Shown here piece by piece: positions 1 to 20,012 of a stretch of DNA of 42,907 nucleotides. How positions within the stretch are numbered: position 1 is the stretch's first letter; each line of letters begins with the position of its first letter. A model generated the notes under the pieces. The model was not told the origin of the DNA and ran no database searches. It worked only from the letters and a program-made list of their open reading frames with translations. Made by a program: the position numbers and the translations under genes. Source of the DNA: a virus (lineage: Duplodnaviria > Heunggongvirae > Uroviricota > Caudoviricetes); the IMG/VR virus record IMGVR_UViG_3300017747_005082, positions 137,618-180,524 of that record, one strand, 5' to 3'.

Positions 1-823
1 TAATATGTGCACGACCTGTAAAATTATATCCACGTTTAGTACATTCTTCCATTACATATTTATAATTTGGGATTACAGCCTCACGTGTATCTCCTGCAGG
101 CATTACCCATGTTTTATTTTTTGGGATATTATGTCTATTTCTAAAATTTTCGATATCATCCCAAATATAAGGATCATTCATATCAACAACTGGTTTAAAA
201 TGATAATCTTTATGATAATTTAATGTATCTTCAATAGCATTATGATTTAATCTAAACTTATTATGTTGTTTAATCATTTTATCATCCACAACTTTATCAG
301 AATTAGGTAACTGTACTCCTAGTTTAGGAACAGAATTTTCAAACTTAGGAGATAGTGAAATTAAATCTATTGGATATTTGGTTTCGACAAAATGAGAACC
401 TTCTGTTTCCATTGTTATAAATCCATTTCCATCAGACATCATTCCTGTTTTTGGTGAAATCAATGGTTTAGTATTTATAGGAGTAGGAAAACTCAATGGT
501 TCACTATGCATTTCATTAAACATAGTAACCAATTCATCTACTAATGCAGGATGCATTGTTGGTGAACCCCCACTTATCATAAGATGATTTATATCAGGTC
601 TACTTTCAAATAATTCTTTAATAGCTTGTAATGTCCATGATCCCTTTTCTGGAGTAATTGAAGTATACCAAGAATCACACCAACCTCCTTCACCAAACCA
701 ACATCTATGGGTACATCCTGTTGTTCTAACCAAAAAATGAGGGTATCCTGCTCTACTTCCTTCAGTTTGAATACAAGTATAAGCCTCTATAATAGGTTGT
801 ATTTTATTATAATCCATTTTCAT
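1..823 (-). CDS. queE: 7-carboxy-7-deazaguanine synthase (radical SAM), 3' end outside the window
   Basis: Not in the ORF track. Manual translation from the ATG at 821-823, which overlaps the folE TAA: MKMDYNKIQPIIEAYTCIQTEGSRAGYPHFLVRTTGCTHRCWFGEGGWCDSWYT...LMISGGSPTMH...ITMETEGS...SLSPK...GYNFTGRAHI, open to base 1. These are QueE hallmark motifs (Q-x-EG, Cys cluster, SGGxP, ETxG, SPK). Confidence 0.93.
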   Translation of the reverse strand, partial: MKMDYNKIQPIIEAYTCIQTEGSRAGYPHFLVRTTGCTHRCWFGEGGWCDSWYTSITPEKGSWTLQAIKELFESRPDINHLMISGGSPTMHPALVDELVTMFNEMHSEPLSFPTPINTKPLISPKTGMMSDGNGFITMETEGSHFVETKYPIDLISLSPKFENSVPKLGVQLPNSDKVVDDKMIKQHNKFRLNHNAIEDTLNYHKDYHFKPVVDMNDPYIWDDIENFRNRHNIPKNKTWVMPAGDTREAVIPNYKYVMEECTKRGYNFTGRAHI

Positions 824-1509
824 TATTTTAATTTTATCATTTGATATACTTCTTGTTTTGCTGTTTTTTCATGGTTTGAAAATACACCTGATACTTCACA
901 AGTGACCATTGAAGCTCCTTGGTGTTTTACTCCTCTACAAGAAACACAATTATGGGTAGAATCAATAACAACCATTACTCCAATATTTCCTGTACATATT
1001 TTGTCTACAGCATTTTGTATTGATTTTGTTAGTTGTTCTTGGATTGCTCCTCTTCTACCAAAATGTTCTACTATTCTATTTAGTTTAGATAATCCAACTA
1101 CAGTACCATCTTTTCCAGGTATATAAGCTATATGAACTTTTCCTTTTATTGTTTGATGATGATGAGAACATTGACTTGTTAATTCAATATTTTTTTCTAA
1201 AACTATACCAGTATACCCATCTGCAGGGAAAGAAGTAGTATCAGAAAATATTTCATATCTACCTTTCCATAAATCATTAACATAAGCTTTAGCTACTCTA
1301 TAAGGAGTATTATTAGAATTTGGATCTAATTGCCATTCACAACCTAAGGCTTCTAGAAAAGCTCCATAATGATAAGCAGCATTTGCAATAATTTCTTTTT
1401 TTTCTACATCATTTAGAGAGCGGTTTTCTCTTTCTAATACTTGTGCTAGTTGAGTTGATATACCATTAGCATAACCTACTTTTGCAGTTTCCAATTCTTG
1501 AATTTTCAT
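823..1509 (-). CDS. folE: GTP cyclohydrolase I
   Basis: NTPYRVAKAY, SQCSHHHQTI, GLSKLNRIVEHFGRR, IQEQLT and HNCVSCRGV match type I GTP cyclohydrolase motifs, including the Zn ligands. Confidence 0.96.
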   Translation of the reverse strand: MKIQELETAKVGYANGISTQLAQVLERENRSLNDVEKKEIIANAAYHYGAFLEALGCEWQLDPNSNNTPYRVAKAYVNDLWKGRYEIFSDTTSFPADGYTGIVLEKNIELTSQCSHHHQTIKGKVHIAYIPGKDGTVVGLSKLNRIVEHFGRRGAIQEQLTKSIQNAVDKICTGNIGVMVVIDSTHNCVSCRGVKHQGASMVTCEVSGVFSNHEKTAKQEVYQMIKLK

Positions 1510-1536
1510 TTCTTTTCTTTTCGTTATTTTTTTGAA

Positions 1537-1842
1537 TTACCTAGTTCGTGGAACTTTTAAATTTTCTGATTGTTGAACCACTTCAACGTTATTTCTAATA
1601 ATACCTTCTAATTTTACACTATTACCTTTCATGAAATTAATTTGATTATCTAATTCATTTATATGTTCCCAAATTTTTGGTAAGAGATTACTATGAGAGC
1701 GATGAGGTTTACAATCTTCATTTAATTTTTCTTCTCCTTGTGGGTAATCTAAATATTCTAATAATCTATAATTATCATAATTACATGCACTTATTTTTTG
1801 TGTTAGTTCTTCTAATATATGTTCTATTCTCTCTAATGTCAT
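1537..1842 (-). CDS. hypothetical protein (coiled-coil-like)
   Basis: 101-aa ORF on the gene-dense strand; no recognised motif. Confidence 0.7.
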   Translation of the reverse strand: MTLERIEHILEELTQKISACNYDNYRLLEYLDYPQGEEKLNEDCKPHRSHSNLLPKIWEHINELDNQINFMKGNSVKLEGIIRNNVEVVQQSENLKVPRTR

Positions 1843-1859
1843 AATATTTTCTTTTATAA

Positions 1860-2243
1860 TTAGTATTTTGGTTTTGCCGGTTCAATAATATTTGTTTCTA
1901 TTTTATCACTTATATTTTGGTTTTTATTTTTTTCTTCTAAAGTACAATTTAATAAATCAACATAATTTCTTAAATCAATTAAAGTATCTTCTATACTTTC
2001 ATTCTTTGCTATTTTATTTGAAAATAATAAATTACATAATCTTTGTATTTTCAAAAGAATATAAAACATATGTATTCCTTCTATTTTAGAAGTATTTACT
2101 TGTAATAAATCTAAAAGTTGATGCATTTGTTTAAAATTCTTTAATACATCTTCTCCAGCATAATCGTATCCTTTAGATTTAATTAATTCAATTCCTTTTT
2201 TATTTATATTTTCAATAAATTCTAATTGTTGTACTTGTTTCAT
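1860..2243 (-). CDS. nucleotide-modification-associated domain (Nmad1/DUF1599-like, all-alpha MazG-like fold)
   Basis: The K-KGYDYA...NF...K-x-x-RL-x-NL...NESIEDTLIDLRNY pattern resembles DUF1599/Nmad1; lies within a base-modification cluster. Confidence 0.7.
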   Translation of the reverse strand: MKQVQQLEFIENINKKGIELIKSKGYDYAGEDVLKNFKQMHQLLDLLQVNTSKIEGIHMFYILLKIQRLCNLLFSNKIAKNESIEDTLIDLRNYVDLLNCTLEEKNKNQNISDKIETNIIEPAKPKY

Positions 2244-2902
2244 AATTTAAATGCTTTTAATGTGTGTTCAAATGGATTATTTGGTATATCTTTTATTAAT
2301 TTCAACATTTGTTTTGCTAATTCTCTTATTTCTAATTGTGCATGTTCATCTGCTCTTAATATATAGAAATGATAAAAGGATCTCCAATTAAACATAATAT
2401 CCATTGTAATTTGGGAATTAAATGTTTTAAAATAACGAGAACTTTCTTTAGCACGTTTACGCCCTAAAATAGGTGTTAAATCTTCTAAACATTGATGATA
2501 TAATTGATTACCTAATTCAGTATATTGTTTAAGTTTAAATGCCCATGTTTGACCATGTTCATAATCATCTAAATATTCCATAGAATGAGGTACATCAAAA
2601 TCTTCAGGTAAATAATATTTATCTTCTTTAAGTTCTTTATATCTAGCACTTTCACCATTAATAGAAACACCAATTCTATGTTTTAAAAGATGAATATGTG
2701 TAGCTTGATCTACATTTACTAAAAAATGAATACAAGACTTTTCAAATGGTGTACCATGTTTGTTATCAGCTAACATTGTTAATAAATTAGGTACTTTACC
2801 TTCTTTACCTTTATAATCTCTTATTGTACTTGTCCAAGCACTCAATGCATGAGTTTTGTCACCACCATAATGACCTAATAATTCTACTGTGTTTTTATTC
2901 AT
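2240..2902 (-). CDS. thyX: FAD-dependent thymidylate synthase
   Basis: HGTPFE; KHRIGVSINGESARYKE is a variant of the ThyX RHRx7SxR signature; NWRSFYHFYILRADEHAQLEIRELA. Confidence 0.93.
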   Translation of the reverse strand: MNKNTVELLGHYGGDKTHALSAWTSTIRDYKGKEGKVPNLLTMLADNKHGTPFEKSCIHFLVNVDQATHIHLLKHRIGVSINGESARYKELKEDKYYLPEDFDVPHSMEYLDDYEHGQTWAFKLKQYTELGNQLYHQCLEDLTPILGRKRAKESSRYFKTFNSQITMDIMFNWRSFYHFYILRADEHAQLEIRELAKQMLKLIKDIPNNPFEHTLKAFKL

Positions 2903-3050
2903 TTAATTCTTTCTCTATTATCTTACAAATTTTATATACAATTTCTTTAGGTCCAAAAGTACTTTTCCAATCACATTCATCAGATACTTTATCAACCCAT
3001 TCCATATATATTTTATATATTTTTTCTTTATCTAAAACTAATGCATTCAT
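2895..3050 (-). CDS. small hypothetical protein (51 aa)
   Basis: Manual translation MNALVLDKEKIYKIYMEWVDKVSDECDWKSTFGPKEIVYKICKIIEKELNE. It fills the queC-thyX gap, with an ATGA overlap on the queC stop. Confidence 0.7.
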   Translation of the reverse strand: MNALVLDKEKIYKIYMEWVDKVSDECDWKSTFGPKEIVYKICKIIEKELNE

Positions 3051-3967
3051 TTTTTATCTCCATTATGTAAGTGATATGTAATAAGAGCATCATTTTCTAA
3101 TAATATAGATTTAACATGATCTCTAGCTATTTCCCAAGATACAGGACCTGTTTCATCTGCATAGGGCGTACTATCAGGCCTACCTAATTTAATAAACGCT
3201 TCAATACGTTCTACTGATGAAGCTGATTTATAATCTGAGTACCAAACAAATCTGTCTACATCTTCTTCACCATAAGGTCCTTTATTTGGGGATTTTTGGT
3301 TTATTTTAATTGGCTTGTATGAAGTTAATGTTCGTTTATATACTTCATTGAAATTTAATCCTAAATTATTACATGAATATTCTCCGTCTTTTAAAATATC
3401 GAATTTATTTAATTCAAGATAGGGTGTATATAAACTAACTTTTTCAGAACCCCAATTTCCTTGTTTAAATGCCTCAAAATCAGCATCTCTAAATTCTTGT
3501 CTACAATCAGGATAAATTGCATGATCTCCAGCATGAATTCCCATAGCTATAACACATTCCGAATTATTTTTTTCTGCTATACTTAAAGCAACAGATTGAA
3601 TAAGAGAAGAAAATATTTTATTTCTATTAGGTACAACAGTAGCTTTCATATTATCAGATTCATAATGACCTTCAGGTACATCTTCTCCTCCTTCAACTAA
3701 TGATGAATTTAATAATTGGGATAAACCATTAAGATTAATAATTTGATGTTTGACATTAATGAATTTACTATTTTCTCTTCCTGTTAATCCATTTGTATAA
3801 TTAAGATACTCTACTAATTCACTTGCTCTTTCAAGTTCAACTTTATGTTTTTGACCATAATCAAAACTTAACGCTGTAACTTCATAACCATTATCTAATA
3901 GGTTTAGTAATAAAGTGCTAGAGTCCATACCCCCACTTAGTGAAATTACTGCATATTTTTTATTCAT
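3047..3967 (-). CDS. queC: 7-cyano-7-deazaguanine synthase
   Basis: ISLSGGMDS PP-loop, FDYGQKH, VVPNRN and HAGDHAIYPDCRQEF; the C-terminal Zn cysteines are replaced. Confidence 0.95.
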   Translation of the reverse strand: MNKKYAVISLSGGMDSSTLLLNLLDNGYEVTALSFDYGQKHKVELERASELVEYLNYTNGLTGRENSKFINVKHQIINLNGLSQLLNSSLVEGGEDVPEGHYESDNMKATVVPNRNKIFSSLIQSVALSIAEKNNSECVIAMGIHAGDHAIYPDCRQEFRDADFEAFKQGNWGSEKVSLYTPYLELNKFDILKDGEYSCNNLGLNFNEVYKRTLTSYKPIKINQKSPNKGPYGEEDVDRFVWYSDYKSASSVERIEAFIKLGRPDSTPYADETGPVSWEIARDHVKSILLENDALITYHLHNGDKK

Positions 3968-3968
3968 A

Positions 3969-4166
3969 TTATTTTATATTTATAGGTTTTTTTCCTTCTT
4001 TATAATATAGATTTACATCTCTATCATCATGATCTCCTTTCTTACCTAAGAAATCTAATACTTCAAGATCCTTTGATGTTAAAAACTTTACATTAGAGAA
4101 TAATTTTGTAATAATTCTACGAGCATCATGAGGTTGGAACTGTATATTTCTTTTATGTTCTTTCAT
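3969..4166 (-). CDS. hypothetical protein
   Basis: 65-aa ORF tightly packed between its neighbours. Confidence 0.6.
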   Translation of the reverse strand: MKEHKRNIQFQPHDARRIITKLFSNVKFLTSKDLEVLDFLGKKGDHDDRDVNLYYKEGKKPINIK

Positions 4167-4411
4167 TAGTTAAAACATTTTTTATAAGCTTCTAAATTAT
4201 TGGCTATTGTAAAATATTCTTTTAATAATCTTGGAGGATAACACATAACTCTAGTATGACCTCCTTGATTAATTTCTTTTGTCATAGGTTTTATACCTCT
4301 TAACTTAGCGTAAGTAAATACTTGTAATCCTAATTTAGAACCTGCTGGTTTTTTTAAATAATCATAAAGGCTTAAATAATCTGTTGTGGGTGGGTTTAAA
4401 CTTGATGTCAT
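4166..4411 (-). CDS. hypothetical protein, weakly resembling antirepressor C-terminal-type small domains
   Basis: 81 aa; LG-x-x-V...RGI...V-x-x-YP-x-x-LL-x-EYF pattern. The function call is weak. Confidence 0.55.
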   Translation of the reverse strand: MTSSLNPPTTDYLSLYDYLKKPAGSKLGLQVFTYAKLRGIKPMTKEINQGGHTRVMCYPPRLLKEYFTIANNLEAYKKCFN

Positions 4412-5265
4412 AAATGTTTATTGTTTGTTATATTATTTGTTATATGTCTAAATTTTTCTATATTATCTAATATATATTCTTTTTGTTCAAAATCCAAAGT
4501 AGATTCAAAAAAATGTTCTAATTTTTCTTTTGGTTTAGAGGTTAAATTTATGGATTTGTAGTAATATTTCTCTCTTTTACAACCTAAAATTATTGGGGAA
4601 GAGGTATCAATAGAATTAATATATTCTTTTTTATTTCTACTATACAAACCTAGTTCTGTAGGTGTTGATAATCCTAATAAATGAATATAATGTTCTTTTT
4701 TAATTACTCCCTTATCAATTAAGTTAGTAATAATATGATTTCTTCCAAAAGAAGCATTCATTAATTCAGTTGAATGTCCTAATGATTGATAAGCTATTGA
4801 AGAATGATTAAAGGAAAAATGAGTGTAACCTAAATCAACACATTGCTGATATAATATTTCCATTTCTCCAAAAGTTTTACCTTGAACAACAACCATTAGT
4901 TGGGTTTTTTCAGGTAAATTTCCTGCTTTCTTTAAACCCATCCAATATTTTGCGTTTTTTAATGTCCCTAATGAATCATTCCATTCATCAGGAGGAATAA
5001 ATATATTGGGTTGAATTTCATCAATTAATTTTAATAAATTTGGGATAGTTGGGACTTCTCCTTCAAATAATCCATTATCTAATATAATAAATGAATTTTC
5101 TTTTTTACTATATTGTAACATCCATTCTTTGTATTCAGTATACCTATCCCAAAAATAAGGTAATATGTATTGATAATCATTATATATTAAACTTTCTTCT
5201 AATAGTTGTAATGGAGTTTCGTGTGATATTTTAATATTTAATTTCTGATATTCTTTCTCCATCAT
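4408..5265 (-). CDS. TGT-fold guanine transglycosylase-like protein (DpdA-like, divergent)
   Basis: Ordered motifs ILDNGLFE, PPDEW, VVQGKT, IHLLGL and SIDTSSP map onto the TGT catalytic Asp, Asp, Gln-Gly and second Asp. No C-terminal Zn site. Located among the que genes. Confidence 0.8.
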   Translation of the reverse strand: MMEKEYQKLNIKISHETPLQLLEESLIYNDYQYILPYFWDRYTEYKEWMLQYSKKENSFIILDNGLFEGEVPTIPNLLKLIDEIQPNIFIPPDEWNDSLGTLKNAKYWMGLKKAGNLPEKTQLMVVVQGKTFGEMEILYQQCVDLGYTHFSFNHSSIAYQSLGHSTELMNASFGRNHIITNLIDKGVIKKEHYIHLLGLSTPTELGLYSRNKKEYINSIDTSSPIILGCKREKYYYKSINLTSKPKEKLEHFFESTLDFEQKEYILDNIEKFRHITNNITNNKHL

Positions 5266-5479
5266 TATTATTAAAGTTTATAGTAATATTATTATCTCCA
5301 TCATCTTTCCAATTAAAATGACCTAATTTTAGTTTTTTCCAGTTTTCATCATCTTTTTTGGATGCGGCAAGAGTATGAAATAACTTGTAAAAATCTAACA
5401 TAAATCTATCAAGATTTTCTTCAGTTATAATATCATATATATCCTGTATATTTTTAATTTCAATTACTTCTTTTTTCAT
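5231..5479 (-). CDS. hypothetical protein
   Basis: 82-aa ORF; no recognised motif. Confidence 0.6.
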   Translation of the reverse strand: MKKEVIEIKNIQDIYDIITEENLDRFMLDFYKLFHTLAASKKDDENWKKLKLGHFNWKDDGDNNITINFNNNDGERISEIKY

Positions 5480-5619
5480 TTTCTTTTTTTCTTTTTAGGA
5501 GTTAGATGAGTATTTTTCTTTCTTACTTTGACTTTTCTTCCCTCTTCTAATTCCCTATGATATAATTCTAAATCTTTTAAAGTAACTTCTCTTTCCCCAC
5601 TATTCTTATGTTCTTCCAT
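5476..5619 (-). CDS. small hypothetical protein with basic tail (47 aa)
   Basis: Manual translation MEEHKNSGEREVTLKDLELYHRELEEGRKVKVRKKNTHLTPKKKKRK; start/stop overlaps with both neighbours. Confidence 0.65.
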   Translation of the reverse strand: MEEHKNSGEREVTLKDLELYHRELEEGRKVKVRKKNTHLTPKKKKRK

Positions 5620-6158
5620 TATAACGTAAATTTATGTTCTTTCCCATTAACATCACTATAAACAGTATGAGTTGGTTGGAGTCTATAATCTAAATCTTTA
5701 AATTTATTAACATATTTTTTTCCTTCTCCAGGATTCAAATAAGCAATAGTTAAATGGGGATGATAATCAAATTCATTAGTGTAAGGAAAAGTATTTCTTA
5801 ATTCTTTATTAACATCATATAAATTTTCCCCGGCTACATCAAATTTTAATACATCATATTTATCCTGCTCAAATAAAGAAACATTATAGGCTTTACATTC
5901 ATTAAATTCATAATATGATAAGATATCCTCTACTTGGAAAGGTTTGATTTCATCATGAATCCCAAATAATAAAGTACAGTGGGGATTTTTTTCTAATCCA
6001 AAAGATGGGTCTTCTGGATCTTGATATATATCACTAGGGTCTATTTCTGCTTGTATTTGAGATAATTCAGGAAAATCAAAAAATAACATAGCACAACCGA
6101 ATTCATGTTTTCTGTTCTCAAACAGAAAATGATATATTGATTTTTTTATTTCAAACAT
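5619..6158 (-). CDS. 2H phosphoesterase, T4 gp57B/Acb1-like
   Basis: Two HxT motifs (PHCTLLFG and YHPHLTIAY) about 75 aa apart; TNEFDYHPHLTIAY resembles the T4 57B segment around its second HxT. Confidence 0.8.
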   Translation of the reverse strand: MFEIKKSIYHFLFENRKHEFGCAMLFFDFPELSQIQAEIDPSDIYQDPEDPSFGLEKNPHCTLLFGIHDEIKPFQVEDILSYYEFNECKAYNVSLFEQDKYDVLKFDVAGENLYDVNKELRNTFPYTNEFDYHPHLTIAYLNPGEGKKYVNKFKDLDYRLQPTHTVYSDVNGKEHKFTL

Positions 6159-6604
6159 TATTTTAAATATAATTGATCTTTTAAATAATCTGATTTATGA
6201 TATTCTATATTTGAAGTTCTAGTTTCATGATAGTTTATTTTCTCAATATCAAAACCAAATCTTTGAGTAATTTCATCAAAAATATAATAACATACATTTT
6301 CCACTGAAGATGCAAATGGAATTATTTTTAGTCCTAGATCTTCTCCTCTATCTTTTTCGAATTGTTCAAAATAAGGTAATAATGGGTCATTTTTATCTAT
6401 TACAAATCTATGATCAAATTCATCTTTAAAAAATGGTTCAATTTCCTTATCAAAATCCCCAAATAATGTAGTTATATTTCCATGTCTTTCAACATTAAAT
6501 GTAATAAAGATTTTAGCATCATGTCCATGAGGTCTAAAACATTTATCTTTTAATTCTTGATTACGGTGACCGTAATACATTTTGTATTCTTTAGTTATTT
6601 TCAT
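6158..6604 (-). CDS. queD: 6-carboxy-5,6,7,8-tetrahydropterin synthase
   Basis: GHR, CFRPHGH (CxxxHGH), FDHRF, SSVEN, HETRTS. Confidence 0.92.
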   Translation of the reverse strand: MKITKEYKMYYGHRNQELKDKCFRPHGHDAKIFITFNVERHGNITTLFGDFDKEIEPFFKDEFDHRFVIDKNDPLLPYFEQFEKDRGEDLGLKIIPFASSVENVCYYIFDEITQRFGFDIEKINYHETRTSNIEYHKSDYLKDQLYLK

Positions 6605-9790: not shown

Positions 9791-12157
9791 TTATGAACCA
9801 CAATTTTCACATGGAAATTCTTCTTCTAAAGTCAATGGAATTTCTTTCAAAATTTCTTGGGGTTTTTCTATCCCTAATGATGCAATAGCTTGGGCAGAAC
9901 CTTGAGTTCTCAAATAATACATTCCTGTTTTTAATCCCTTTTTCCAAGAATACATATGCATTGATGATAATTTACCAATTGTAGGTTGTTCCATCCATAA
10001 ATTCATACTTTGAGATTGATCAATAAATACTGCTCTATCTGCAGCCATATCAATAATGTCTTTCATTGACATTTCCCATACAATTTTATATAATTCTTGG
10101 ATATTTTGGGGAATATATTCAATTCCTTGAACTGAACCCTTTCTGATTATAATATCATACTTAGTTTGTTCATTCCATAATCCTAACTCTTCAAGGTCCT
10201 TAACTAAATGTTTATTGATCACAACAAATTCTCCAGATAATACTCTTCTAACACCAATATTTGATTTAAATGGTTCAAATGCTTCATTATTACCCATAAT
10301 TTGTGCTGTAGATGCTGTTGGCATTGGAGCTATTAATAGGGAATTTCTTACCCCATATTTTTGGATATTTTCTCTTAAATTTTTATAATCTAAAGTTAAA
10401 TTACCAATAATTTTCTGATCTTCTGATTTTATACCCCACATATCTGGTTGGATTATTCCTTTAGATAATGGAGATCCTTCATAACTTTCGTATGTTCCGT
10501 CTCTTTTAGCTAAATTACATGATGTTGATAATGCAGAAATATATATCACTTCAAATATATCTTTATTTAGTTGTTTAGCTTCTTCACTATTAAATGGTAA
10601 TTTAAGAATCGCGAAAACATCAGCTAATCCTTGTACGCCCCAACCAATGGGTCTATGTTTATTATTTGAAGTTTTAGTTTCTTGGGTTGGGTATAAATTT
10701 TTATCAATAACTGTATTTAAATTATCTGTACCCTTAGAAATTATATAATATAATTTTTCAAAATCAAATTTACCATTAACAATACAATTAACTAAATTAA
10801 CCGATGCTAAATTACATACTGCTTGTTCTTCTGGTGAAGAGTATTCAATAATTTCCGTACATAGATTTGATGATTTAATTGTACCTAAATTCTTTTGATT
10901 AGATTTGGAATTAGCTGCATCTTTATTTAACATATAAGGAGTACCTGTTTCAATTTGAGATTCAAGAATAGCGTTCCATAAATCTCTTGCTTGGATTTTT
11001 TTACCATTCATTCTTCCTTCATTAATAGCTGTAACTATATTATGATATTCAGAATCAAATTCATCAGAGTGTAATTCATCTAAACGAGTAAATCCAGCTT
11101 TAAGTTGTTCATTAGGGCAAGATAAATACCAATCCCCATCAATTTCTACTTGTTTATAAAATAAATCAGGAATCCATAAAGCAGGGAATAAATCTCTTGC
11201 TCTTAATTCTTCTTTACCTGTGGTTTTTCTGATATCTAATAAAGTAAAAACATCTAAATGCCAAGGTTCTAAATACATAGCAAAAGATCCTTTACGTTTG
11301 TTTCCACCTTGGTCCCAATATCTAGCTAATTCGTTATTTAATTTTAAATAAGGTAAAATTCCATTAGAAGTTCCATTAGTAGAATGAATTTTAGAACCAG
11401 CAGCTCTTAAATTTGATATAGATAATCCAATTCCCCCAGCGTGTGATGAAATAATAGATACATCTTTGGCAGTATCCATAATACCATCTTTACTATCACC
11501 TTTGTTATTAATTAAAAAACATGAAGCCAGTTGCTGTCCTTTCAAACCAGAGTTAAACATAGTAGGAGTAGCATGGGTATAATCCCAATTAGATAACATT
11601 TTATAAGTCTCTATGACATCCTCCCAATTTTTAGTAACAGTAATAGCTTCCCTCATATACATATCTTGAGGTCTTTCAACTATTACATCTTCATTATTAT
11701 TATATATTTTTAATAGATATGCTTTCTCTAATGTTTTATATCCAAAATAATCAAACTTATAATCCTTTTCATAATCTATAACAGATTTAATATTATCAAA
11801 TCCATAAGATTCTACTCTTAAAATGTATTCTTCATTTAATAAATCTTTTTCTTTTAATTCATTAAAAACTAATTGAAAATCACCTGATGTTTCTTTATGT
11901 AAGGCAGATATAGCAATATTTGCCGCTAATTTACTATAATCTGGATGGTTTGTAGTATAAGAAGCTGCAGTATCTGCAGCTAATTTGTCTAATACGGTAG
12001 TAGTAACACCATCATAAAGACCTTGTACAACTTTCATTGATATTTCAAGATGATTTACTTGTAATCCAACACTAGCTTTTTTTATTCTAGTTTGAATCTT
12101 ACCAAAATCTACATTTACTAATCTACCATTTCTTTTCTTAACTTTAATCTCTTCCAA
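9791..12157 (-). CDS. nrdA: ribonucleotide reductase class Ia alpha subunit
   Basis: N-terminal ATP cone (VKKRNG), TPTMFNSG, LASCFL, SNLCTEI, VCNLAS, APMPTAST, LKTGMYYLR and C-terminal CENCGS. Starts at TTG. Confidence 0.97.
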   Translation of the reverse strand: MEEIKVKKRNGRLVNVDFGKIQTRIKKASVGLQVNHLEISMKVVQGLYDGVTTTVLDKLAADTAASYTTNHPDYSKLAANIAISALHKETSGDFQLVFNELKEKDLLNEEYILRVESYGFDNIKSVIDYEKDYKFDYFGYKTLEKAYLLKIYNNNEDVIVERPQDMYMREAITVTKNWEDVIETYKMLSNWDYTHATPTMFNSGLKGQQLASCFLINNKGDSKDGIMDTAKDVSIISSHAGGIGLSISNLRAAGSKIHSTNGTSNGILPYLKLNNELARYWDQGGNKRKGSFAMYLEPWHLDVFTLLDIRKTTGKEELRARDLFPALWIPDLFYKQVEIDGDWYLSCPNEQLKAGFTRLDELHSDEFDSEYHNIVTAINEGRMNGKKIQARDLWNAILESQIETGTPYMLNKDAANSKSNQKNLGTIKSSNLCTEIIEYSSPEEQAVCNLASVNLVNCIVNGKFDFEKLYYIISKGTDNLNTVIDKNLYPTQETKTSNNKHRPIGWGVQGLADVFAILKLPFNSEEAKQLNKDIFEVIYISALSTSCNLAKRDGTYESYEGSPLSKGIIQPDMWGIKSEDQKIIGNLTLDYKNLRENIQKYGVRNSLLIAPMPTASTAQIMGNNEAFEPFKSNIGVRRVLSGEFVVINKHLVKDLEELGLWNEQTKYDIIIRKGSVQGIEYIPQNIQELYKIVWEMSMKDIIDMAADRAVFIDQSQSMNLWMEQPTIGKLSSMHMYSWKKGLKTGMYYLRTQGSAQAIASLGIEKPQEILKEIPLTLEEEFPCENCGS

Positions 12158-12159
12158 TT

Positions 12160-12312
12160 TTATTTTTCTTTTGTAATAATTAATAGATCAAAGGAATATT
12201 TTAATTTATTTTTACTTCCTCTTTTGTATTTGTTGGTTAATATATACCAAATCATCTCCCATTTTGAAATACCATCTTTAGGTACAATATAATAATCTTG
12301 TGTTTTTTTCAT
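12160..12312 (-). CDS. small hypothetical protein (50 aa) between nrdB and nrdA
   Basis: Manual translation [50 protein letters not shown]. Its ATG overlaps the nrdB TAA; its stop is 2 nt before the nrdA TTG. Confidence 0.55.
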   Translation of the reverse strand: MKKTQDYYIVPKDGISKWEMIWYILTNKYKRGSKNKLKYSFDLLIITKEK

Positions 12313-13265
12313 TAGAATTCTTCATTAAATGTTATTTTTTGTTCTCCTTGTCCTACACCAGCTTTTTGATATTCCGATACTCTCTTTTCGAAAAAATTAC
12401 TTTGACCTTGTAATGCAATCATTTCCATAAATTTAAATGGTTGTTTCACATTAAATATTTTTTCACATCCTAATTCTACTAATAATCTGTCGGTTACAAA
12501 CTCCAGATATTGTGTCATTAATTCTGAGTTCATTCCAATTAAAGAAACTGGAAGAGATTCTGTAATGAATTCTTTCTCGATATCTAATGCAGATAATATG
12601 ATCTCAACTATTCTTGGTTTGGAAACTTTATTAATTAAGTGATGATTATGTAGATGTACAGCAAAATCACAATGCATTCCTTCATCACGAGAGATTAATT
12701 CGTTTGAAAATGTTAACCCAGGTAATAATCCACGATTTTTCATCCAAAATATTGAACAAAAGGCTCCTGAGAAAAATATTCCTTCAACAGCTGCAAAAGC
12801 GATTAATCTTTCAGCAAATGAGTCAGATTCTATCCATTTTAAAGCCCAGTCTGCTTTTTTCTTTATAGCTGCAAAATTTTCAATTGCTTTAAATAATTTA
12901 TCTTTCTCTCTTGGGTCTTTAATATAAGTATCAATCAAAAGAGAATAAGTTTCACTATGGATATTCTCCATCATGATTTGGAATCCGTAGAAAAATTTTG
13001 CTTCTGTATATTGCACTTCGTTCACGAAGTTTTCGGCAAGATTTTCGTTTACAATCCCGTCAGATGCGGCAAAAAAAGCTAGAATATGCTTAATAAAATG
13101 TTGTTCTCCTGGTGTTAATTCGTCAAATTTATCATCTTTTAAATCTATTTCCTCCGCAGTCCAAATAGAGGCTTGTGATTTTTTATACCATTCCCATAAA
13201 TCAGGATGTTCAATAGGAAATAAAACAAATCGGTTTGGGTTTTCTTTTAAAATTGGTTCTTGCAT
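12312..13265 (-). CDS. nrdB: ribonucleotide reductase class Ia beta subunit
   Basis: [37 protein letters not shown] (radical Tyr), EGIFFSG, RDEGMH, NFFEKRV. Confidence 0.97.
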
Positions 13266-18674: not shown

Positions 18675-20012
18675 TCATTTTATTTGTTTTAAATTATTGT
18701 AATCTATTCCATAACTAACACTTGATTTAAAACCTCTTGTTTCAAGTATATTTTTAATTTCTTTTATTATATTTTTATCATCTTCAATATTATAATTTAT
18801 TAAAAATGAATCATATGTATATAATATACATTTTGATTTTTTATTATCCAAATAATCTAATAAATCTTTTAAATTTAAAATATTAAAATAAGTTTCAGCA
18901 CTTTGAATAATATAATTGTATATTTTTTGGGGAGTTGGATTAATAATCTCTTCTAATTTAATTTTTCTTCCACCTACTAATTCAATAAAACCTTGATTAT
19001 TAACTTCTTTCCATAATTTTTCAATATATTTTGCTAATTTTTCCCAAAATGGAACGTGTTTATATTGAGGAAATACACCTCCATTCATCATTTTAAAAGA
19101 AAGTTGTTTAGATTTTTTATAATCTTCAGGAGTTAATATTTCTTTATTAAAATACATTTTACCCATTTCGGTATGTATATCATCTCCTTCAAATATATAA
19201 CCTATTAATTTAGCGGATAATAAAATATGATACGATTTCATATCGAATTCAAATAAAAATCCATTTCGAGGAATTAAAAATTCCCTAGTATTATCAGATT
19301 TATTTAATGCTGCAAAATTAACACTATTAAATGCATTTGAAGGTCTTGAAGTAAAATTATATAAATTATATTGTGTATATATTTTATCTTCTTTAATTGA
19401 AAATTGTGGATGTCTTAGAGCAAAATGAGAATCAAAAATAGCGCGATCTATATTAATTCCTTCTTTTTCAATACAATACATTGAATATATATAGTCAACG
19501 TTGTAATACATTGATATATGTTGATTACCTATATAATCTTTAACATAATCATATATTAATTCTTGCTCTTCATAATGTTTTGTGATAGGAATAAATGAAT
19601 TTAGTTTTTGATGAATTTTAAAACTACCTTCGATATAATTAGTAACTATTGATTTATAGTTGGGTAATTCTAAAGAATAGATAGTATTCTCCAAATGTAA
19701 TAAATTTATATCTACTACTTTATTTTCTTTAAATCTATCTCCTAGATAATGGAGAATTTTCTTTTTATCTAAAACGTATATTGAGGGATGTTTTAATAGA
19801 AAAGTTTTAATTAAATCTATATCTAATGAAATTCCATCATTATGATTTATAGGAAAAATATAACCTTTATGTCCTTCTGTTTTGTAATAAATTAAAGATA
19901 TTCCTGTTAATTTAGGATGATAATTATGATTTAAAGGTACTATATTAATAAAACAAGGTTTATTATATGCTAACCTTTCAAGTTGGTTTTTATTCTCAAC
20001 AATCCAATACAT
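18675..20012 (-). CDS. polA: compact, divergent family A DNA polymerase
   Basis: YNLYNFTSRPSN (TGRLSS-like), motif A FEFDMKSYH, motif B KSKQLSFKMMNGG, NYIIQS and motif C LYTYDSF; only 445 aa. Confidence 0.85.
   Translation of the reverse strand: MYWIVENKNQLERLAYNKPCFINIVPLNHNYHPKLTGISLIYYKTEGHKGYIFPINHNDGISLDIDLIKTFLLKHPSIYVLDKKKILHYLGDRFKENKVVDINLLHLENTIYSLELPNYKSIVTNYIEGSFKIHQKLNSFIPITKHYEEQELIYDYVKDYIGNQHISMYYNVDYIYSMYCIEKEGINIDRAIFDSHFALRHPQFSIKEDKIYTQYNLYNFTSRPSNAFNSVNFAALNKSDNTREFLIPRNGFLFEFDMKSYHILLSAKLIGYIFEGDDIHTEMGKMYFNKEILTPEDYKKSKQLSFKMMNGGVFPQYKHVPFWEKLAKYIEKLWKEVNNQGFIELVGGRKIKLEEIINPTPQKIYNYIIQSAETYFNILNLKDLLDYLDNKKSKCILYTYDSFLINYNIEDDKNIIKEIKNILETRGFKSSVSYGIDYNNLKQIK

Follow-up and report, generated by a model that had tools for sequence, protein, structure and literature searches.

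A DpdA3-type 7-deazaguanine module in an uncultured freshwater phage, with a possible route to guanine replacement at the level of free nucleotides

The complete 180.5-kb genome of an uncultured freshwater phage, known from a metagenome, ends in the 42,907-nt stretch of DNA analysed here (the window; positions refer to it unless given as genome positions). Its first 6,604 nt carry, co-oriented on the minus strand, queD, a 2H phosphoesterase gene, a TGT-fold gene (dpdA3, below), queC, thyX, an Nmad1/DUF1599 gene, folE and queE; all window features described below lie on this strand. Neighbouring genes overlap by 1–4 nt at the queD/2H, thyX/Nmad1 and folE/queE junctions and between dpdA3 and a small partner gene. 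Judging from the E-values, coincidence cannot explain the gathering of five pathway genes in 6.6 kb.

Four of these genes encode FolE, QueD, QueE and QueC, and signature motifs are present for the last three. The GTP cyclohydrolase I gene folE (823..1509; Pfam PF01227, 2.9e-42) encodes a protein 61.5% identical to FolE of immuto, a phage that recurs in the comparisons below. The radical SAM 7-carboxy-7-deazaguanine synthase gene queE (1..823; genome 137589-138440; 283 aa) extends 29 nt beyond the window start; its product matches the QueE-like PHROG (7e-40) and Pfam Radical_SAM (2e-5), retains the cysteine triad C-x3-C-x7-C and is 51% identical to QueE of immuto. The 6-carboxy-tetrahydropterin synthase gene queD (6158..6604; Pfam PTPS, 3e-16) is the sole PTPS gene of the genome, and its CFRPHGH motif (CxxxHGH) identifies the product as QueD and led us to reject the decarboxylase DpdL as its identity. 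The preQ0 synthase gene queC (3047..3967; Pfam QueC, 8.8e-41) encodes a long variant with the PP-loop SGGMDS (SGGxDS), 61% identical to QueC of immuto, whose DNA base derives from preQ0. The canonical Zn-binding cysteine cluster is missing from this protein, which reads SDYKSASSVERIEAF where SCGKCPSCSERI is usual. Since immuto and many relatives carry the same Zn-less form, and SCGKCPSC is retained in other relatives, it is atypical but probably active.

The TGT-fold gene dpdA3 (4408..5265) encodes a minimal 7-deazaguanine transglycosylase of 285 aa. Its product has no Pfam match, and the classical TGT domain PF01702 is absent from the complete genome. In tblastn searches it matches the 'DNA guanine transglycosylase' of immuto (immuto26A_65; 6e-24, 94% coverage) and gp056 of Campylobacter phage CP220 (1e-12), and phmmer recovers the same two phages (7e-30 and 1e-19, respectively) with a single match in each genome. 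An AlphaFold model (pLDDT 90.9) matches the bacterial DpdA structure 7UI4 and the Z. mobilis TGT with Z scores of about 18 (18.2) over 239–246 residues. Among 31 homologues, D63, D93, L197 and D220 are invariant and no cysteine is conserved that could form a Zn site. D63 and D220 align with the catalytic D63 and D206 of CAjan DpdA1, in a sequence alignment only and with a non-significant hhalign E-value of 0.066. Homology to the founding members, a TGT/DpdA-type TIM barrel recognisable only by remote methods (about 260–285 aa, no Zn subdomain) and the co-encoded FolE, QueD, QueE and QueC place this protein in the already published DpdA3 family (Cui/Hutinet 2023, PMC10516641); it is not new. 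The family is widespread in environmental data, with >460 protein clusters and >470 viral contigs. The original prediction, made from the letters of the window, had described an eight-gene co-oriented cluster, a complete GTP-to-preQ0 pathway and a transglycosylase lacking a Zn domain; all eight genes, including the four pathway enzymes, are supported by Pfam, PHROG or model matches, and the missing Zn domain agrees with the homologue alignment.

Directly downstream of dpdA3 lies a gene for a basic 81-aa protein (4166..4411), a candidate accessory subunit. Of 80 related loci, 57 have it at this position and in the same orientation, and three metagenomic proteins (P0029, P0232 and P0233) have it fused to DpdA3. 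Its predicted structure is a helix-helix-hairpin-helix (pLDDT 76) with no significant match in the PDB and a faint shape likeness to AntA and winged-helix domains. The partner could be a DNA-binding module. Three further small ORFs are interspersed: a 101-aa ORF of no family (1537..1842; no match in Pfam or PHROG), a 65-aa ORF without a match in family searches (3969..4166) and an 82-aa ORF with only a weak match to PHROG 26841 (5231..5479; 2.5e-4), the last two of unassigned function.

The Nmad1/DUF1599-like gene (1860..2243; Pfam DUF1599 at a weak 0.005, PHROG 1485 at 2e-10) overlaps by 4 nt with the stop of thyX (2240..2902; flavin-dependent thymidylate synthase, Pfam Thy1 3.8e-29) and is strongly conserved in the clade. 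Its product scores 17.6 bits against the PF07659 model, for which the cut-off is 25, and has 110 homologues at 48–86% identity, several of which, at 51–73%, carry PF07659; DUF1599 clusters make up 19 of its 30 ESM-Atlas neighbours. Because this gene stands beside ThyX here and follows the ThyA gene in the related phage L170, Nmad1 is paired with thymidylate synthase and not with DpdA3; the MazG-like pyrophosphatase role supposed for it in the original prediction is at most putative. The LigT-like 2H phosphoesterase gene (5619..6158; Pfam 2_5_RNA_ligase2 7.8e-07, two HxT/S motifs) has no assigned role in the pathway; L170 shows a faint 2H match two genes upstream of dpdA3, and a 2H gene is present in 3 of 80 related loci. 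The original proposal that thyX, Nmad1 and 2H are companions of the pathway is not supported, as they adjoin DpdA3 in just 1–3 of the 80 loci. It had also suggested that the ribonucleotide reductase and an altered PolA take part. Class Ia large and small subunits are encoded in the window (9791..13265; Pfam 4e-193 and 1e-104), but nothing ties them to the pathway, the PolA-like ORF (18675..20012) matches the C-terminal part of PolA alone and weakly (Pfam DNA_pol_A 1.8e-4, below the cut-off; PHROG 17 4e-5), and the main replicase is a split family-B polymerase encoded outside the window. Also nearby, besides the 2H gene, are genes for a HAD_SAK_2 protein and a DSP phosphatase.

The co-oriented block continues to the left of base 1, with a P-loop kinase-like gene for a 165-aa protein (genome 136318-136815), a PhyH-type Fe/2OG dioxygenase gene (genome 135682-136317) and, 2.2 kb left of the window, a MazG-type NTP pyrophosphatase gene (genome 134966-135442) whose product has intact EExxE and D..D motifs. 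L170 keeps the order QueE, 119-aa ORF, P-loop, MazG. An AAA_28 kinase is encoded about 48 kb from dpdA3 (genome 9272-9802).

Its gene content makes the block a 7-deazaguanine DNA-modification module of the DpdA3 type, and the phage probably replaces the G of its own DNA. A close parallel is immuto, likewise a myovirus of low GC content that infects a Bacteroidota host, which shares DpdA3 (32% identity), FolE, QueE, Zn-less QueC, a MazG-type NTP pyrophosphatase (61%) and an AAA_28 kinase (28%). Unlike here, the MazG and kinase genes of immuto flank DpdA3 directly (gene row MazG, DpdA3, DpdN, kinase, QueF), and immuto has no 81-aa partner. In addition, immuto encodes QueF, a formyltransferase (DpdN) and a small phosphoribosyltransferase. 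All three are absent here, so that the pathway should stop at preQ0. CP220 (Firehammervirus), in which dADG replaces 100% of G, is also a large myovirus with a DpdA3 (32% identity; 1e-12 to 1e-19) and an AAA_28 kinase (30%), but there the partner of DpdA3 is an HD/P-loop protein and not MazG, in a three-gene islet among structural genes (HD/P-loop gp055, DpdA3 gp056, kinase gp057), and the QueC homologue has been proposed to go no further than ADG. Cellulophaga phage phiST, reported to carry dDG at 100% of G, shares DpdA3, FolE, QueD, QueE and a nearby MazG/dUTPase-like gene, but lacks QueC and relies on DpdL, a QueD-like decarboxylase, whereas QueC is present and DpdL absent here; BLAST of our DpdA3 (P0001) against that of phiST gave no direct match.

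To our knowledge, DpdA3 phages are the only viruses in which every G is replaced by a 7-deazaguanine. The TIM-barrel fold, apparently also the catalytic Asp pair, and the preQ0 pathway genes are shared with DpdA1 and DpdA2 phages (CAjan, 9g, VH7D) and with bacterial DpdA (7UI4), but those enzymes have been shown to act on DNA and give partial, motif-specific replacement, whereas DpdA3 is associated with complete replacement. In figures, DNA-acting DpdA enzymes reach about 30% at most, at specific motifs, against 100% in all three DpdA3 phage lineages measured, and in E. coli DpdA2 alone modified DNA while DpdA3 alone did not (PMC10516641).

We lean towards a pre-replicative route, with a probability of roughly one half, in which the base is exchanged on free nucleotides before replication. 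The MazG-type pyrophosphatase would convert dGTP to dGMP; DpdA3, by way of its conserved Asp pair, would put preQ0 in place of guanine on a free deoxynucleotide, dGMP being the simplest case; a phage P-loop kinase, with the 165-aa protein of the block and the AAA_28 enzyme as candidates, would re-phosphorylate the product; and the phage PolB would make DNA with G fully replaced by dPreQ0, which would protect it from restriction. The odds are even that DpdA3 is not a DNA-modifying enzyme but the first TGT-superfamily transglycosylase on free deoxynucleotides (dGMP + preQ0 -> dPreQ0-MP + guanine), as the core of a purine counterpart to the T4 triad of dCTPase, hydroxymethylase and dNMP kinase. 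In T4 (gp56 dCTPase, gp42 dCMP hydroxymethylase, gp1 dNMP kinase) and in S-2L (MazZ, PurZ, DatZ; PMC8342488), as in the proposed route, a pyrophosphatase removes the canonical dNTP and supplies dNMP, the base is altered on the monophosphate, and a kinase brings the product back to the triphosphate. Unlike in those triads, the change of base would here fall to a transglycosylase of the TGT fold, which would exchange the entire base, with a proposed activity on free nucleotides.

Gene context in other phages points the same way. In six cultured phage lineages, P-loop kinase genes lie directly beside DpdA3 or DpdA3-like genes, and these kinases fall into at least four groups without detectable mutual similarity. 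Besides the CP220 and immuto arrangements, an AAA_18/33 kinase gene abuts the DpdA3-like gene of Chryseobacterium phage MA9V-3, a T4 gp1-type dNMP kinase gene and a dCTP-deaminase/dUTPase-fold gene come straight after that of Aeromonas phage Ahp1, and a P-loop gene overlaps the front of those of Bacillus phage BSTP12 and Weizmannia phage Youna2; in phiST, the MazG/dUTPase-like gene is three genes from DpdA3. The DpdA1 cluster of the partial, motif-specific modifier CAjan, examined as a control, yielded no kinase or NTPase. Pyrophosphatase and kinase genes are encoded with the modifier here as well (MazG/PRA-PH and P-loop in the block, AAA_28 elsewhere), and the AAA_28 kinase is present in 18 of 18 phage records matching DpdA3 and in 5 of 5 complete relatives. 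ADG nucleoside has been reported in the cytoplasm of CP220-infected cells. A pool-level route to deaza-dGTP had been part of the original prediction, and the kinases and MazG genes beside DpdA3 in other phages strengthen it; its details change, the pyrophosphatase being the MazG left of base 1, accompanied by the P-loop kinase-like gene, and the replicase the split PolB. A modified-dGTP idea had already been proposed for Campylobacter phages, according to a statement in PMC6884629, and was argued against in 2023 (PMC10516641).

Several observations weigh against this route. MazG lies within 10 kb of dpdA3 in only 6 of 80 loci of the clade and is absent from 2 of 5 complete relatives, and the AAA_28 kinase was never near dpdA3 among the 80 kinase loci of the clade. 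The same kinase family occurs in 89 Streptomyces phage records, and no deazaguanine genes lie near it in Karimac, the one such locus examined. Large phages in any case often encode MazG and nucleotide kinases, and we know of no TGT-superfamily enzyme that acts on free nucleotides.

A serious but less favoured alternative yields the same product from the same module after replication: DpdA3, perhaps with its 81-aa partner, would flip G from new duplex DNA and insert free preQ0, and MazG, the kinases, ThyX and the reductase would be ordinary nucleotide supply. Post-replicative insertion is the proposal of the sole paper on the family (PMC10516641). It is consistent with the fold and catalytic residues that DpdA3, as modelled, appears to share with DNA-acting DpdA (7UI4) and CAjan DpdA1, with MazG and kinase genes that mostly do not adjoin dpdA3 in the clade, and with the conserved basic partner, which some proteins have as a fusion with DpdA3 and which is faintly reminiscent in shape of AntA and winged-helix domains. 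It also fits the placement of dpdA3 in a replication module, with DnaB in 60, a 5'-3' exonuclease in 56, UvsX in 51 and gp32 in 37 of 80 related loci. Set against it are the contrast between partial, motif-specific and complete replacement, the inactivity of DpdA3 alone in E. coli, and the recurrence beside DpdA3 and DpdA3-like genes, in six lineages, of unrelated nucleotide kinases and dNTP hydrolases, which it leaves unexplained. Moreover, wherever complete base replacement in phages has been studied well, it is, as far as we know, pre-replicative.

On either timing, dPreQ0 is the default predicted base. The complete genome, including the flank left of base 1, contains no gene for QueF, ArcS, Gat-QueC, a second PTPS, DpdL, a DpdN-type formyltransferase, an HD protein or PF01702, so that the absence of QueF, ArcS and Gat-QueC first noted for the window extends to the whole genome; with no tailoring enzyme encoded, preQ0 would be the base used. 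A different final base is unlikely, whether through a QueC that stops at the amide (dADG, as proposed for the CP220 homologue) or through tailoring by an unrecognised enzyme such as the PhyH dioxygenase: QueC here is indeed atypical in lacking the Zn site, but immuto, which requires preQ0 for QueF, has the same Zn-less type, and the dioxygenase gene, although it sits between the P-loop gene and MazG, has no counterpart in the syntenic block of L170 and turns up in 1 of 80 loci. A role in tRNA modification of the queuosine or archaeosine kind, on phage or host tRNAs, is very improbable, since despite a mainly tRNA-modifying fold and the nearby HAD_SAK_2, DSP phosphatase and 2H genes, this DpdA3 lacks the Zn subdomain of tRNA-guanine transglycosylases, no QueA, QueG or QueF gene is there to finish queuosine, and the closest relatives with data, immuto and CP220, have fully modified DNA.

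With no tailoring genes in the complete genome, an all-dPreQ0 genome is predicted, and dPreQ0 is not among the products reported for the three measured DpdA3 phages. Any mechanism for DpdA3 has to account for its conserved and sometimes fused 81-aa partner. If DpdA3 does act on nucleotides, the enzymology of the TGT superfamily would change, the failure of DpdA3 in heterologous tests would be explained, and an enzymatic route to 7-deaza-dNTPs would become available.

The block adds a complete new member to the known DpdA3-type 7-deazaguanine system; dPreQ0 DNA is its predicted product. The window holding the block is the final 42.9 kb of a single viral contig of 180,524 bp (26% G+C, terminal overlap of ~123 bp) that is classed as complete and carries almost all of its genes on the minus strand. 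The phage is recognizable as a large T4-like myovirus by its genes for tail sheath, tail tube, gp32, a clamp loader, and UvsX-like and DnaB-like proteins. Every gene named in the original prediction for window positions 1–6604 is present, all on the minus strand. In transcription order, the block contains queD (6604–6158; CxxxHGH motif), a 2H phosphoesterase (6158–5619; both HxT/S motifs), an 82-aa ORF, the TGT-like gene (5265–4408; 285 aa), an ORF for a basic 81-aa protein (4411–4166), a 65-aa ORF, queC (3967–3047; SGGxDS PP-loop), thyX (2902–2240), an Nmad1/DUF1599-like gene (2243–1860), a 101-aa ORF, folE (1509–823), and queE (823 to 29 nt past the window start; Cys triad conserved). Judged by sequence, the QueD, QueC, 2H, and QueE motifs are consistent with active enzymes.

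The TGT-like gene is dpdA3. Its product, P0001, has no Pfam match, and PF01702 has zero matches across the complete genome. The protein matches a hypothetical protein of the Campylobacter phage CP220, with further matches in 13 other Campylobacter phage records; the phage proteins matched are those on which the DpdA3 subfamily was founded (Cui, Hutinet et al. 2023; PMC10516641). Its AlphaFold model, for which 31 homologues were used, has a pLDDT of 90.9; structural alignment with the DNA preQ0 insertase DpdA (7UI4) and with Z. mobilis TGT gives a Z of 18.2 over 239–246 residues. No cysteine is conserved in the alignment of the 31 homologues, so the Zn site is absent from DpdA3. Residues D63, D93, L197, and D220 are invariant, and a statistically weak hhalign comparison places them opposite D63, D105, F189, and D206 of the DpdA of phage CAjan, which are assigned to catalysis and base binding (PMC7544227). 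Neither the hhalign comparison with CAjan DpdA nor that with E. coli Tgt reached significance, and no PDB sequence was matched by a profile made from the DpdA3 alignment. The family is large, with 462 or more protein clusters and 472 or more viral contigs. A search for fused forms with a length of at least 500 aa had no hits. The family is acidic (median pI 5.6), as is E. coli Tgt, and charge therefore does not discriminate.

Completeness of the genome made it possible to see which genes lie left of base 1. The co-oriented block carries on leftward past the window start with a 119-aa ORF, an 84-aa ORF, a P-loop protein of 165 aa whose GK(I)T loop resembles that of adenylate kinases (genome 136318–136815), a PhyH-type dioxygenase (genome 135682–136317), a MazG/PRA-PH NTP pyrophosphatase with an intact EExxE motif (genome 134966–135442), a DSP phosphatase and a HAD_SAK_2 protein (both within genome 133195–134180), and a family-B DNA polymerase gene that an HNH endonuclease gene divides in two (genome 129235–133062, L001:9236–13063 in our excerpt of the genome). 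The MazG protein is 61% identical to that encoded two genes upstream of DpdA3 in immuto, a cultured dpdA3 phage. The polymerase consists of a 617-aa N-terminal and a 301-aa C-terminal part, with the HNH endonuclease gene and a 129-aa ORF in between. In a syntenic 175-kb relative (L170), the conserved order is 2H, DpdA3, 81-aa protein, QueC, thymidylate synthase, Nmad1, FolE, QueE, 119-aa ORF, P-loop protein, MazG, and PolB. The HAD_SAK_2 and DSP/PTP-SAK phosphatase genes (L001:13196–14181), whose “Swiss Army Knife” domains are RNA-repair domains, adjoin MazG; these two genes and that of the 2H phosphoesterase may belong to a set for RNA repair that has no connection with DNA modification.

The original prediction had left room for tailoring genes left of base 1. 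In the complete genome we found no QueF, second PTPS-fold gene (DpdL), formyltransferase (DpdN), or HD protein, and no homologues of the immuto QueF, DpdN, and phosphoribosyltransferase. The lone sub-threshold QueF match falls inside FolE, whose T-fold is related to that of QueF. QueC is unusual: it is long and has no Zn-binding Cys cluster. The default prediction of dPreQ0 as the base rests on this lack of tailoring genes and on the 61% identity of QueC to that of immuto, whose DNA base fdPreQ1 requires preQ0 (PMC10516641). Complete replacement is expected here too, because G replacement is 100% in all three DpdA3 lineages measured (dADG in CP220, dDG in the Cellulophaga phage phiST, and fdPreQ1 in immuto; PMC10516641).

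Two QueC types occupy the same cluster position in this phage group: the long, Zn-cluster-less form found here, in immuto (L003/L002), and in many relatives, versus a canonical 246-aa form with SCGKCPSC (L170:2570–3310, L007, L011), to which it is ~30% identical. The PhyH-type Fe(II)/2-oxoglutarate dioxygenase (Pfam 2.9e-22; L001:15683–16318), encoded between the P-loop gene and MazG and missing at the corresponding place in L170, may act in tailoring or be cargo unconnected with the system.

Some of the companion genes are better assigned elsewhere. Nmad1 had been proposed as the pyrophosphatase of G replacement. It is strongly conserved in the clade (48–86% identity), has no match among cultured phages, and comes after ThyX here and after a ThyA-family enzyme in L170; its partner is therefore the thymidylate synthase, not DpdA3, and the candidate for the pyrophosphatase role is MazG outside the window. 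Of 80 related loci, just 1 has thyX within 10 kb of DpdA3, 2 have Nmad1, and 3 have 2H; on this ground the three were rejected as parts dedicated to G replacement. The “altered PolA” proved to be a weak C-terminal PolA-like match, the replicase being the split PolB. No special polymerase is needed, since 7-deazaguanine derivatives do not inhibit the polymerases required for phage replication (PMC6884629). The exchange of ThyX (window 1860–2902 (-), with Nmad1/DUF1599) for a 355-aa ThyA-family protein (L170:3929–5324) looks like a non-orthologous displacement in which the synthase–Nmad1 pair is kept; the long L170 protein could be a pyrimidine hydroxymethylase.

The literature on pre- versus post-replicative insertion is divided. 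Use of a modified dGTP by the polymerase was an earlier proposal for Campylobacter phages, as noted in PMC6884629. Post-replicative insertion has been argued from the presence of DpdA in every such phage (PMC10516641); in the same study, attempts to get DpdA3 to function in E. coli failed, whereas DpdA2 did so on its own. Gene context gives replacement of guanine on free deoxynucleotides before replication a probability of about one half. In CP220, DpdA3 is flanked by an HD/P-loop protein and a P-loop kinase, the three genes standing as an islet amid tail genes. The immuto order is MazG, small ORF, DpdA3, small ORF, DpdN, kinase, and QueF, and phiST encodes a MazG/dUTPase-like protein three genes away from DpdA3. 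More distant DpdA3-like genes, all within FolE/QueD/QueE clusters, also have P-loop kinase neighbors. An AAA_18/AAA_33 kinase abuts the gene in Chryseobacterium phage MA9V-3 (L173); in Aeromonas phage Ahp1 (L174) it is followed by a T4 gp1-type dNMP kinase (PF21448, 1.7e-17) and a dCTP-deaminase/dUTPase-fold protein; and in Bacillus phage BSTP12 (L171) and Weizmannia phage Youna2 (L172) an overlapping P-loop gene lies 5′ and PolA 3′. The kinases beside DpdA3 and DpdA3-like genes fall into at least four groups without detectable mutual similarity. Nucleotide kinases act on free nucleotides, and a T4-like scheme of dNTPase, dNMP modifier, and dNMP kinase thus predicts that kinases and dNTP hydrolases of unrelated origin recur beside DpdA3, as they do. 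The DpdA1 cluster of CAjan, a phage with partial, motif-specific modification, has no detectable kinase or NTP pyrophosphatase; it is the single control, as a tblastn query with E. coli Tgt missed phage DpdA1/2. The four DpdA3-like genes are unannotated or mis-annotated (e.g., “NadR”, “polynucleotide kinase”), with no 7-deazaguanine annotation in the records viewed, and the BSTP12 and Youna2 proteins weakly match DUF6610, the DpdA4 family.

An AAA_28 “thymidylate kinase” accompanies the system. It occurs in 18 of 18 phage records that matched DpdA3 and in all five complete relatives, with an orthologue in the present genome (genome 9272–9802, L086:4273–4803). The original pool-level idea gains from the kinase and dNTP-hydrolase neighbors in cultured phages and loses from the clade of the present phage, where MazG is mostly, and the AAA_28 kinase always, distant from DpdA3. 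MazG is within 10 kb in only 6/80 loci and missing from two of the five complete relatives, QueC adjoins in 57/80, and none of the 80 kinase loci of the clade has DpdA3 nearby.

Insertion by DpdA3 into finished DNA is a serious possibility, though somewhat less probable than the pool-level route. In this clade DpdA3 mostly lies within the replication module: of 80 loci, 60 include DnaB, 56 the exonuclease, 51 UvsX, and 37 gp32. The basic 81-aa protein follows DpdA3 on its 3′ side in 57/80 related loci (L004–L083) and is fused to its C-terminus in at least three metagenomic database proteins from several contigs (P0029, P0232, P0233; 354–366 aa), which surfaced only among near-length matches. 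If DNA-binding, this partner would favor post-replicative insertion; however, replacement is 100% in immuto and CP220, which lack it. It carries the motif SLYDYLG.AAG.ELG..V...A ... Y.G.V.LY..FL..YF, belongs to no Pfam or PHROG family, and is modeled as helix-helix-hairpin-helix. Searches against the PDB gave no significant match (Foldseek best E 0.6; VIA wide best Z 4.8), and the sole fold lead is a resemblance in shape to AntA domains in the ESM-Atlas (TM 0.63). Complex predictions with DpdA3 scored 0.00, 0.36, and 0.00, which speaks neither for nor against binding. What probability these two routes leave goes to other possibilities.

The distribution of the AAA_28 kinase also bears on replacement at the pool level. 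Among 50,697 phage records, the family is confined to DpdA3 phages (Campylobacter, Flavobacterium) and 89 Streptomyces phage records, the latter a point against the pool-level route. In the one Streptomyces locus examined, that of phage Karimac (L169:6210–7621), the kinase gene is coupled to and overlaps a “methyltransferase” gene, with no deazaguanine genes nearby. When viral contigs were scanned with the kinase alignment, only close relatives came back, other lineages being outside its reach. The AAA_28 enzymes may serve generally as kinases of modified dNMPs. The cultured DpdA3 phages immuto and CP220 are better biochemical material than the present uncultured genome.
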